DNA of 64,000 nt from Candidatus Micrarchaeota archaeon (GTDB lineage Archaea > B1Sed10-29 > JAJRYS01). The notes below the pieces were generated by a model. That model was not told the DNA's origin, searched no databases, and saw nothing but the letters and a program-made list of their open reading frames with translations. The stretch is taken from positions 118,737 through 182,736 of the forward strand of contig CAZXTN010000001.1 in the NCBI GenBank assembly GCA_964643685.1. Direction: 5' to 3'. Below are positions 8,683-28,627 of this stretch, one piece after another. Every line of letters starts with the position of its first letter. Within the stretch, counting starts at the first letter, position 1. The position numbers and the translations under genes were made by a program.

Positions 8683-8810
8683 GCAGAGGTGGCAGAGTGG
8701 TAATGCGCTGGTTCACTTTCGCTCGGCGAAATGAACGACTGAACGGAGTGAGGCGAGTCTTGAAAACCAGTGTCCTCCGGGGCGCTAGGGTTCAAATCCC
8801 TACCTCTGCG
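8683..8810 (+). tRNA. tRNA-Ser (anticodon TGA) with a 46-nt intron (8713-8758) at a non-canonical position (31/32 or 32/33); class II long variable arm; T-loop TTCAAAT; CCA not encoded
   Basis: Acceptor GCAGAGG/CCTCTGC+G, anticodon stem CTGGT/ACCAG, spliced loop CTTGAAA, T-stem TAGGG/CCCTA parsed by hand. Confidence 0.7.
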
Positions 8811-8849
8811 CTTTACTTTTATAATTTTACAGATTAAGTTGGTTACAAA

Positions 8850-27223: not shown

Positions 27224-27670
27224 ATGTCAAAACCATTTAAAAAACAAAAAATAGATAAAATAGCAGCTATTGACGCAATGGGATTTATACTCGGCTCAGC
27301 AATGGCTCTAGAATTAAAAACAGGATTTGTGCCAATAAGAAAAGAAGAAAGATTACCTGGAATGAAAAAAATAAGCACTTCATTCATAGATTTCAGCAAG
27401 AAGAAAAAAGCACTTGAAATAAACCAAGCATCAATTAAAAAAAATGAAAAAATATTAATAGTAGATGACTGGATGGAAACAGGCTCACAAATAAGAGCAG
27501 CAATCAAGCTAATTCAAAAACAAAAAGGAAAAGTAATAGGCATAAGCCTCTTTGCAGCAGAAAAAAAAGAAGAAACAAAAGAACTGTTTGACAAATACAA
27601 AATAAAAGCAGTAGGAGTATTTGAAGGAGAAGAACTTGAAAGAATAAAAAAACAAATAAAAAGGTATTAA
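27224..27670 (+). CDS. apt: adenine/purine phosphoribosyltransferase-like protein (main ORF; N-terminal hood encoded upstream in +... shifted frame 27115-27198)
   Basis: PRT type I fold: IDAMGFILGSAMALELKTGFVPIRK, VDDWMETGSQ PRPP-binding loop. Confidence 0.75.
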   Translation: MSKPFKKQKIDKIAAIDAMGFILGSAMALELKTGFVPIRKEERLPGMKKISTSFIDFSKKKKALEINQASIKKNEKILIVDDWMETGSQIRAAIKLIQKQKGKVIGISLFAAEKKEETKELFDKYKIKAVGVFEGEELERIKKQIKRY

Positions 27671-27697
27671 GGAGTATAATAACTATAAAAAATAAAA

Positions 27698-27891
27698 GCG
27701 GTGGTCGCATAGTCCCTCGTAAAAACGAAGTTTTTTCGTTGGGTGCAATGGCTATTGCGCCAGCCTGGAAACAACCCATAAAAATACAAAAAGGTTGACT
27801 GCAAGCTGGTGTCCTCCGGGGCACGCGAGTTCAAGTTTGCGACAAGGTTCCCTCGTCGAACTTTTCGCAAGCGAAAATCTCGCCCACCGCG
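27698..27891 (+). tRNA. tRNA-Ser (anticodon GGA) with three introns: D-loop (~27714-27748), canonical 37/38 (27771-27803), T-loop 59/60 (27835-27876); CCA not encoded
   Basis: Acceptor GCGGTGG/CCACCGC+G, anticodon stem CCAGC/GCTGG with loop CTGGAA|A, variable arm TGTCCTCCGGGGCAC (near-identical to tRNA-Ser(TGA)), T-stem GCGAG/CTCGC with spliced T-loop TTCAAAT. Confidence 0.65.
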
Positions 27892-27912
27892 CTTTAGAAA
27901 GATAAATCAAAA

Positions 27913-27924
27913 CGTTTATAAATG
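27913..27924 (+). promoter_or_regulatory. BRE/TATA-like box CGTTTATAAATG upstream of the S13-S4-S11-rpoD operon
   Basis: Shared TTTATAAA motif. Confidence 0.4.
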
Positions 27925-28045
27925 AATTGAATTACAAATAATACACTTAAAAATTCTTTTTAAAAAAAGTCGGCGAGCTCCTTAAAAGCGATGACCTACT
28001 GGAAACAAAACTAATTCAAAAAAAAATTGGAAAAAAAGATGCAAG

Positions 28046-28627
28046 ATGGCTAAAGTTAAAGAAGTTAAAAAAGAAAAACCTAAGCAGGAAAAGCAGAAAA
28101 AGAAAATTGTCCAGGAAAATTCAGAATTTAAAGGAAGGTTAAGGATAGCTGGAAAAGAAGTAAAAGGGCAGTATTCTATTAAAAAAGCAATTAGTCAAAT
28201 AAGAGGAATTGGAACTAATTTAGCTGACACTCTTGAAAAAATTATAATTAAAAAATTAAACCTTAAAGAAAATGAAAAAATAGGAAACTTGACAGATGAG
28301 CAGTTAGATGAACTTGAAAAAATAATAGCAAATCCGAAAGAAAACGGAGTACCTGCTTGGATGTTGAACAGAAAAAAAGACCCTGAAACAGGAGAAGATA
28401 AGCATTTAATATCATCAGATCTTGACTTCCAGAAAAAACAAGACATAAAAGGATTAATTAAAATAAAGGCATACCGCGGAGTAAGGCACATGTATGGATT
28501 GACATCAAGAGGACAGAGGACAAAAACAAGCGGAAGAAAAGGATTAACTCTTGGAGTACAGAGGAAGAAAAACAAGCCTGCTCAGAAGAAGAAATCAAGC
28601 GGGCAATCAAGTGGAAAAAAGAAATAA
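28046..28627 (+). CDS. rps13: ribosomal protein S13 (with ~25-aa K-rich N-terminal extension)
   Basis: S13/S18e core (IRGIGTNLADTL). Confidence 0.9.
   Translation: MAKVKEVKKEKPKQEKQKKKIVQENSEFKGRLRIAGKEVKGQYSIKKAISQIRGIGTNLADTLEKIIIKKLNLKENEKIGNLTDEQLDELEKIIANPKENGVPAWMLNRKKDPETGEDKHLISSDLDFQKKQDIKGLIKIKAYRGVRHMYGLTSRGQRTKTSGRKGLTLGVQRKKNKPAQKKKSSGQSSGKKK

Follow-up and report, generated by a model that had tools for sequence, protein, structure and literature searches.

The locus at positions 27698–27891 on the (+) strand of the window, as we call the whole 64-kb (64,000-nt) stretch of DNA analyzed here, raises the question of whether it is a genuine tRNA-Ser(GGA) gene interrupted by three introns, as a first-pass annotation had proposed, and, if so, where exactly its exons end and how its introns relate to those of other archaea. 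Judging from the sequence, it very probably is such a gene, from which three introns would be spliced to join four exons of 15, 22, 32, and 14 nt (83 nt in total, spread over 194 nt). The exons and introns, the latter with the type of archaeal bulge-helix-bulge (BHB) motif that they carry, are as follows.

27698..27712, (+) strand: exon 1, 15 nt; acceptor 5′ half GCGGTGG, U8, C9, D-stem 5′ strand GCA, U13, A14, G15
27713..27748, (+) strand: intron 1, 36 nt, 42% GC; D-loop site 15/16, strict 3-4-3 BHB
27749..27770, (+) strand: exon 2, 22 nt; remainder of the D-loop UGGCUAU, D-stem 3′ strand UGC, G26, anticodon-stem 5′ strand CCAGC, loop C U GGA A
27771..27803, (+) strand: intron 2, 33 nt, 33% GC; canonical site 37/38, relaxed BHB
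27804..27835, (+) strand: exon 3, 32 nt; A38, GCUGG, variable arm U-GUCC-UCCG-GGGC-AC, T-stem 5′ strand GCGAG, T-loop UUCAAG
27836..27877, (+) strand: intron 3, 42 nt, 48% GC; T-loop site 59/60, relaxed BHB
27878..27891, (+) strand: exon 4, 14 nt; U60, T-stem 3′ strand CUCGC, acceptor 3′ half CCACCGC, discriminator G73

The exons together supply every part of a serine tRNA. The two acceptor halves that the first-pass annotation had noticed 180 nt apart are borne out, with GCGGTGG at 27698–27704 and its perfect complement CCACCGC at 27884–27890, followed by G at 27891. The remaining parts on which that annotation relied were likewise all present, namely, the anticodon arm (CCAGC at 27760–27764, CTGGAA|A, and GCTGG at 27805–27809, with the GGA anticodon at 27767–27769), the variable-arm core TGTCCTCCGGGGC at 27810–27822, which is identical to positions 8771–8783 of a tRNA-Ser(UGA) in the same window, and the T-stem (GCGAG at 27825–27829 and CTCGC at 27879–27883). 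ARAGORN identified the spliced 83-mer as tRNA-Ser(GGA); unless every one of the three introns was removed, it did not use the perfect 7-bp acceptor stem. The minimum free energy (MFE) fold of the spliced RNA is a class-II cloverleaf, and none of the conserved tertiary bases (U8, A14, G15, G18, G19, U54, U55, C56, A58, and C61) is missing. The variable region is 15 nt long with a 4-bp stem, and the discriminator at 27891 is a G; a long variable arm and a G73 discriminator are serine identity features for archaeal SerRS. The exons range from 59% to 79% GC and the introns from 33% to 48%, in a genome of ~35% GC. The 3′ CCA is not encoded, and CTTT adjoins exon 4.

Other types of interrupted gene were considered and rejected. 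A split or permuted tRNA gene was ruled out by the four exons being colinear on a single strand within 194 nt. Group I or II self-splicing introns, for which at least about 200 nt and a ribozyme core were taken as the criterion, were ruled out by the lengths of the introns (33–42 nt) and by the lack of any match to an Rfam intron family. C/D-box guide RNAs inside the introns were rejected upon reading the intron sequences by eye, which revealed neither C nor D boxes.

Every pair of cut sites in the region was scored for the BHB register, in which a 4-bp central helix lies between an outer and an inner helix, each central strand is followed on its 3′ side by a 3-nt bulge, and cleavage occurs past the second nucleotide of the bulge. 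Introns 1 and 2 proved to be the two top-scoring motifs of the region, intron 1 having the highest score, while intron 3 scored lower. Each pair of boundaries can form a BHB motif, strict for intron 1 and relaxed for introns 2 and 3 (HBh′ and hBH being the accepted relaxed forms), so that the three interruptions noted earlier in the D-loop, at 37/38, and in the T-loop were borne out and refined to 27713–27748, 27771–27803, and 27836–27877. Specifically, intron 1 has a fully paired central helix (GCAU at 27707–27710 with GUGC at 27743–27746, four of four pairs), bulges AG|U (27711–27713) and AA|U (27747–27749), a CC/GG inner helix, and an outer helix that starts at C27706-G27750 and runs outward. 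For intron 2, the anticodon stem serves as the outer helix and CAACC/GGUUG as the inner helix, and the two are 7 nt apart on each strand, as BHB spacing demands, with only two of the four central pairs formed. Intron 3 uses the T-stem as its outer helix and shows the same correct 4+3 spacing, with a central helix UUCA/CGAA (three of four pairs), bulges AG|U (27834–27836) and AA|U (27876–27878), and the inner hairpin UUGCGA-AAGGUUC…GAACUUU-UCGCAA, in which one extra G (27871) offsets the 3′ strand.

The unconstrained fold of the 194-nt precursor reached −77 kcal/mol (z = −5.07), and none of 200 shuffled sequences was as stable. In this fold, 27698–27704 pairs with 27884–27890, the variable arm is formed, the intron 2 hairpin extends the anticodon stem, and the intron 3 hairpin extends the T-stem. 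The BHB conformers differ from the MFE structure, with forcing of the intron 1 motif costing 7.5 kcal/mol and that of the intron 3 motif 1.6 kcal/mol; the three motifs do not overlap one another and can form together. As a separate observation, the octamer TCCCTCGT is common to intron 1 (27713–27720) and intron 3 (27849–27856), and TTC(C/G)CTCG(T/G)CGAA is common to intron 3 and the tRNA-Ser(UGA) intron. A common origin based on these similarities was set aside as too weakly supported (p of 0.01 to 0.02 before correction for six comparisons), the similarities being compatible with related introns.

Standard searches did not find the gene. Across the whole window, neither default ARAGORN nor Rfam at the gathering score reported any RNA gene, and the unspliced locus gave no match to the Rfam tRNA family (RF00005) at the gathering score or at E ≤ 10, which is expected because it carries 111 nt of insertions. 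The sole match to 27400–28200 in Rfam E-value mode was a spurious lncRNA (E = 1.5), and ARAGORN run with a lowered threshold and introns allowed returned ~50 obviously false calls, which were discarded. As a control for chance, BHB-like pairs were picked over the whole window on both strands, up to three were spliced out at a time, and ARAGORN was run on the products (608 tiles and 131,883 candidate splicings). The resulting tRNA calls were confined to 8.7 kb, where tRNA-Ser(UGA) lies, and to 27.7–27.9 kb; since the scan gave no tRNA elsewhere in the window, the three-intron call is not an artifact of trying many splicings. The same scan revealed no second copy of tRNA-Ser(GGA) in the 64-kb window. 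A gapped scan of the metagenome contigs for the exon pattern yielded eight chance matches in high-GC bacterial contigs and one locus already in our set. Neither default ARAGORN nor Rfam/Infernal scanning detects the gene, and annotations of this genome and its relatives therefore probably list tRNA-Ser(GGA) as missing. Incomplete tRNA sets in DPANN archaea have already been read as an indication that disrupted genes go undetected (PMC5829648).

The strongest test of the junctions comes from uncultured relatives, whose contigs were fetched via homologues of ribosomal protein S13 and whose spacers between cbf5 and rps13 were aligned. The closest named S13 matches are Micrarchaeota, and the host is a low-GC, Micrarchaeota-related archaeon. 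In the window, the tRNA is preceded by secY, L34e, cmk, L14e, cbf5, and an APRT-like gene and followed by S13, S4, S11, rpoD, L18e, and L13. Orthologues of the tRNA between cbf5 and rps13, in genomes with S13 61% to 86% identical to that of the window, have near-identical exons and differing sets of introns, as listed below (percentages are S13 identities).

Window, the reference: introns at 15/16, 37/38, and 59/60
L034, 86%: intron at 37/38 only
L035, 84%: introns at 37/38 and 59/60
L039, 83%: intron at 37/38 only
L040, 76%: intron at 59/60 only
L041, 75%: introns at 37/38 and 59/60
L046 (Micrarchaeota), 64%: intron at 37/38 only
L001, 64%: no introns
L043 (GCA_024275665.1), 61%: introns at 15/16, 30/31, and 37/38

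Wherever an intron is absent, the intron-free junction coincides exactly with the site predicted from the BHB, and removal restores a continuous RNA. Intron 1 is missing from all of the listed relatives except L043, in which the 15/16 site is also occupied by an intron; the other seven (L034, L035, L039, L040, L041, L046, and L001) read GCATAG|TGGCTAT across the junction. Intron 2 is missing from L040 and L001, and the junction free of intron 3 reads GTTCAAG|TCTCGC in L034 and L039. The relatives' 37/38 introns are unrelated in sequence except at their BHB-constrained ends and form three or four of the four central pairs, and at the register used in the window relatives reach four of four pairs for both introns 2 and 3. 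Intron 3 itself is homologous in five lineages (the window, L035, L040, L041, and L038), and both of its inner helices and its central helix have undergone compensatory changes, with UUGCGA/UCGCAA becoming UUACAA/UUGUAA in L040 and UUCA/CGAA becoming UUCG/CGAA; these changes were read by explicit sequence parsing because MAFFT misaligned the hairpin by one column. In the alignment of spliced orthologues, the cloverleaf is 100% paired, 10 pairs have changed on both sides, and the exon 1 sequence shows no differences. Orthologues with no intron or one intron score 44–58 bits with the Rfam tRNA model, compared with a gathering score of 29. The orthologues, in which the predicted junctions link the exons without interruption, thus support, together with the strict and relaxed BHBs, the earlier reading of a tri-intronic tRNA-Ser(GGA).

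Further features were observed in these relatives. The L043 gene (about 1140–1335) also carries three introns, at 15/16 (44 nt), 30/31 (41 nt), and 37/38 (24 nt), with an uninterrupted T-loop, and GCTGTGGTCGCACGG, ~90 nt upstream of it, resembles the 5′ exon of this tRNA and could be left over from a duplication. In L020 (Candidatus Micrarchaeia MAG17), a tRNA-Ser(GGA) at 2693–2876, upstream of rps13, has introns at 37/38 (~46 nt) and 59/60 (~52 nt); ARAGORN made no call on it, even with the intron option.

The evidence above also bears on other readings of the locus, the nearest of which differs from ours only in where two of the junctions fall. It is unlikely, in our estimation, that the gene has its T-loop intron at 58/59 (27835–27876), with a T-loop of UUCAAAU rather than UUCAAGU, or, similarly, its first intron at 16/17. 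ARAGORN calls both of these spliced versions tRNA-Ser(GGA), and UUCAAAU does occur in L001 and in the tRNA-Ser(UGA) of the window, but the closest intron-free alleles, L034 and L039, read GTTCAAGTCTCGC, i.e., they have G59, and cutting the 3-nt bulge AAU beside the T-stem behind its second base puts the site at 27877|27878. With regard to intron 1, 16/17 would be equally possible by sequence alone because a T at both of its ends makes the two sites indistinguishable; four of four central pairs, however, form only in the 15/16 register. We therefore retain introns at 15/16, 37/38, and 59/60.

A decaying or inactive gene, in which at least one insertion could not be spliced and another copy of tRNA-Ser(GGA) would be used instead, might be suspected from the relaxed motifs of introns 2 and 3, from the absence of intron 1 in the closest relatives, and from the fact that our inspection covered 64 kb of the genome. 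We regard it as very unlikely, given that the cloverleaf is perfect over all 83 exon positions, with the conserved tertiary bases retained, intron 1 is a textbook 3-4-3 BHB, intron 3 persists with compensatory changes in several lineages, the locus occupies a conserved syntenic tRNA-Ser(GGA) site, and the window holds no second copy. Hardly credible at all is a two-intron tRNA whose 5′ end lies within intron 1 and which starts near 27736. It derives from a run in which only introns 2 and 3 were removed and ARAGORN reported a shorter tRNA-Ser(GGA) with an alternative 5′ strand; such a molecule loses the perfect 7-bp GCGGTGG/CCACCGC acceptor stem, whose strands (27698–27704 and 27884–27890) pair in the unconstrained fold, and GCGGTGGTCGCATAG joins the D-loop directly in all relatives. 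The three-intron gene with the boundaries listed above remains our preferred reading.

On this reading, transcription of the locus would yield a precursor of 194 nt or slightly more, in which each intron and its flanking exon sequence would fold into a BHB or relaxed BHB. The archaeal tRNA splicing endonuclease EndA would cleave each 3-nt bulge between its second and third bases, and an RNA ligase of the RtcB type would join the four exons into the 83-nt tRNA, with the introns being circularized; CCA would then be added to the spliced tRNA, as proposed because it is not encoded. EndA cleavage in both bulges, RtcB-type ligation, and circularization of the intron are established for archaeal tRNA splicing (PMC4090602, PMC5829648, and PMC3239211), and for this locus we infer cleavage, ligation, and expression from the sequence. 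The host is also predicted to have an EndA of broad specificity, because the anticodon loop houses only one of the introns and two of the motifs are relaxed, and the enzyme should be of the (alpha-beta)2 or epsilon2 type or alpha4 with the DPANN loop. A phmmer search of the ORFs of the 64-kb window with an M. jannaschii EndA query found no match, which is a weak negative.

The neighborhood of the gene contains several further features. In the spacer that separates the tRNA from the S13 start codon (28046), an element of the form GGCGA-[hairpin]-NRUGACC at 27972–27999 on the (+) strand is kept in all eight relatives compared; its stem shows compensatory changes at three of four pairs (GCUC/GAGC, GCCC/GGGC, GUCC/GGAC, and GCUU/AAGC), and the flanking GA…UGA layout resembles a kink-turn. 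Rfam returned no match for this element. Judging from these features, it may function as a leader that binds protein in the S13-S4-S11-rpoD mRNA, comparable to the L7Ae k-turn leaders (PMC5539422 and PMC6298567). The sequence AAAACGTTTATAAATG at 27909–27924 (+) begins ~18 nt past the tRNA 3′ end and hardly varies across all the relatives; it probably serves the S13 operon as its BRE/TATA promoter. On the other side, a 148-aa ORF at 27224–27670 (+), which we take by eye to be phosphoribosyltransferase-like, lies between cbf5 and the tRNA; it appears to be a lineage-specific insertion, since the tRNA directly follows cbf5 in every relative examined. Over the window as a whole (1–64000), the AT skew of the (+) strand is very strong (~+0.5) up to ~44 kb and approximately zero or negative around 52–56 kb, a pattern that fits the location of nearly all genes of the first two-thirds on the (+) strand and a change of gene orientation thereafter.

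The second tRNA of the window, tRNA-Ser(UGA) at 8683–8811 (+), has a 46-nt intron (8712–8757) at the non-canonical site 30/31, with a central helix CGCU/GGCG in which four of four pairs form. It is the sole gene that ARAGORN found when allowing one intron and the sole match in Rfam E-value mode (45.6 bits), and it was missed by default ARAGORN and by Rfam in gathering mode. Because of this 30/31 intron, both tRNA genes found in the window are disrupted at non-canonical sites. The 3′ 24 nt of the intron (8734–8757) are identical at 20 of 24 positions to the 30/31 intron of the L043 tRNA-Ser(GGA) (about 1258–1281), comprising AACGACUGA…GAGGCGAG, with an alignment score of 28 compared with a maximum of 25 in 5,000 shuffles. 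This similarity is partly forced by pairing with similar exons, but the AACGACUGA block is not, which suggests transfer of an intron between serine isoacceptors. The sequences thus hint at transposition or gene conversion between serine isoacceptors of different genomes.

Taken over the relatives, tRNA-Ser(GGA) has four insertion sites (15/16, 30/31, 37/38, and 59/60) in at least six combinations among genomes with 61–86% identical S13, and the losses are exact. In a neighbor-joining tree of S13, a single protein that gives low resolution, alleles with and without intron 3 are intermixed, and intron 1 occurs only in the window and the distant L043; this distribution implies repeated exact losses or gains. 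It is possible, and we put it forward tentatively, that BHB introns are being actively turned over in a Micrarchaeota-related clade and that this locus captures one stage of the process. Transposition and gene conversion of tRNA introns have so far been argued mainly for Thermoproteales, and this reading, if true, would extend them to DPANN-like archaea. It would also provide a natural series for working out the mechanism of intron gain and loss, with the same gene carrying zero, one, two, or three introns with exact junctions and with two serine isoacceptors sharing a homologous intron at 30/31. Such snapshots of intron insertion and loss have been called for in reviews (PMC4033280).

How does this gene compare with known systems? 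A tRNA-Ser(GGA) directly upstream of rps13 is found in many archaea, usually with one canonical intron. The syntenic genes of Methanosarcinales, ANME-1, and other archaea (L005, L007, L011, L012, L015, L016, L018, L026–L029, and L033) resemble that of the window in identity and in their place at the head of the S13-S4-S11-rpoD cluster; unlike it, they carry a single canonical intron of 15–30 nt, and ARAGORN detects them when its intron option is used.

The arrangement itself is a known one, involving no new mechanism, and the maximum of three introns is already documented. Archaeal tRNA genes with up to three introns, the highest number recorded, come mainly from Thermoproteales, and multi-intron tRNAs have also been described in ARMAN-1/2, M. 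kandleri, N. equitans, and K. cryptofilum (PMC3239211, PMC4033280, PMC3218864, and PMC8450103). The gene described here thus stands at the recorded maximum for an archaeal tRNA, and the rarity of three-intron tRNAs and their distribution among Thermoproteales and DPANN, as stated in the first-pass annotation, agree with the literature (PMC3239211, PMC4033280, and PMC8450103). Both 59/60 and 30/31 are listed among archaeal intron insertion sites (PMC4090602). The three-intron tRNAs of Thermoproteales, such as Pyrobaculum islandicum tRNA-Pro(UGG) with introns at 25/26, 37/38, and 56/57 (PMC4090602; also PMC3218864 and PMC8450103), likewise combine one canonical with two non-canonical BHB-type introns in a colinear gene missed by ordinary tRNA finders; the window gene differs in its low-GC, Micrarchaeota-related host, as opposed to a crenarchaeal hyperthermophile, in being a class-II serine tRNA, and in its non-canonical sites (15/16 and 59/60).

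Two further cases match individual introns. ARMAN-2 has a relaxed 59/60 intron (PMC3239211), which shares with our intron 3 the T-loop site, the relaxed motif, and a related taxonomic neighborhood, whereas the window gene combines three introns, including one in the D-loop. In Methanopyrus kandleri, pre-tRNA-Glu(UUC) contains a D-loop HBh′ intron along with a canonical intron, and broad-specificity enzymes cleave such D-loop introns efficiently (PMC5829648). The window gene shares with it the combination of a D-loop intron and a canonical intron but differs in that its D-loop intron forms a strict 3-4-3 BHB rather than an HBh′ motif and that a third intron is present.
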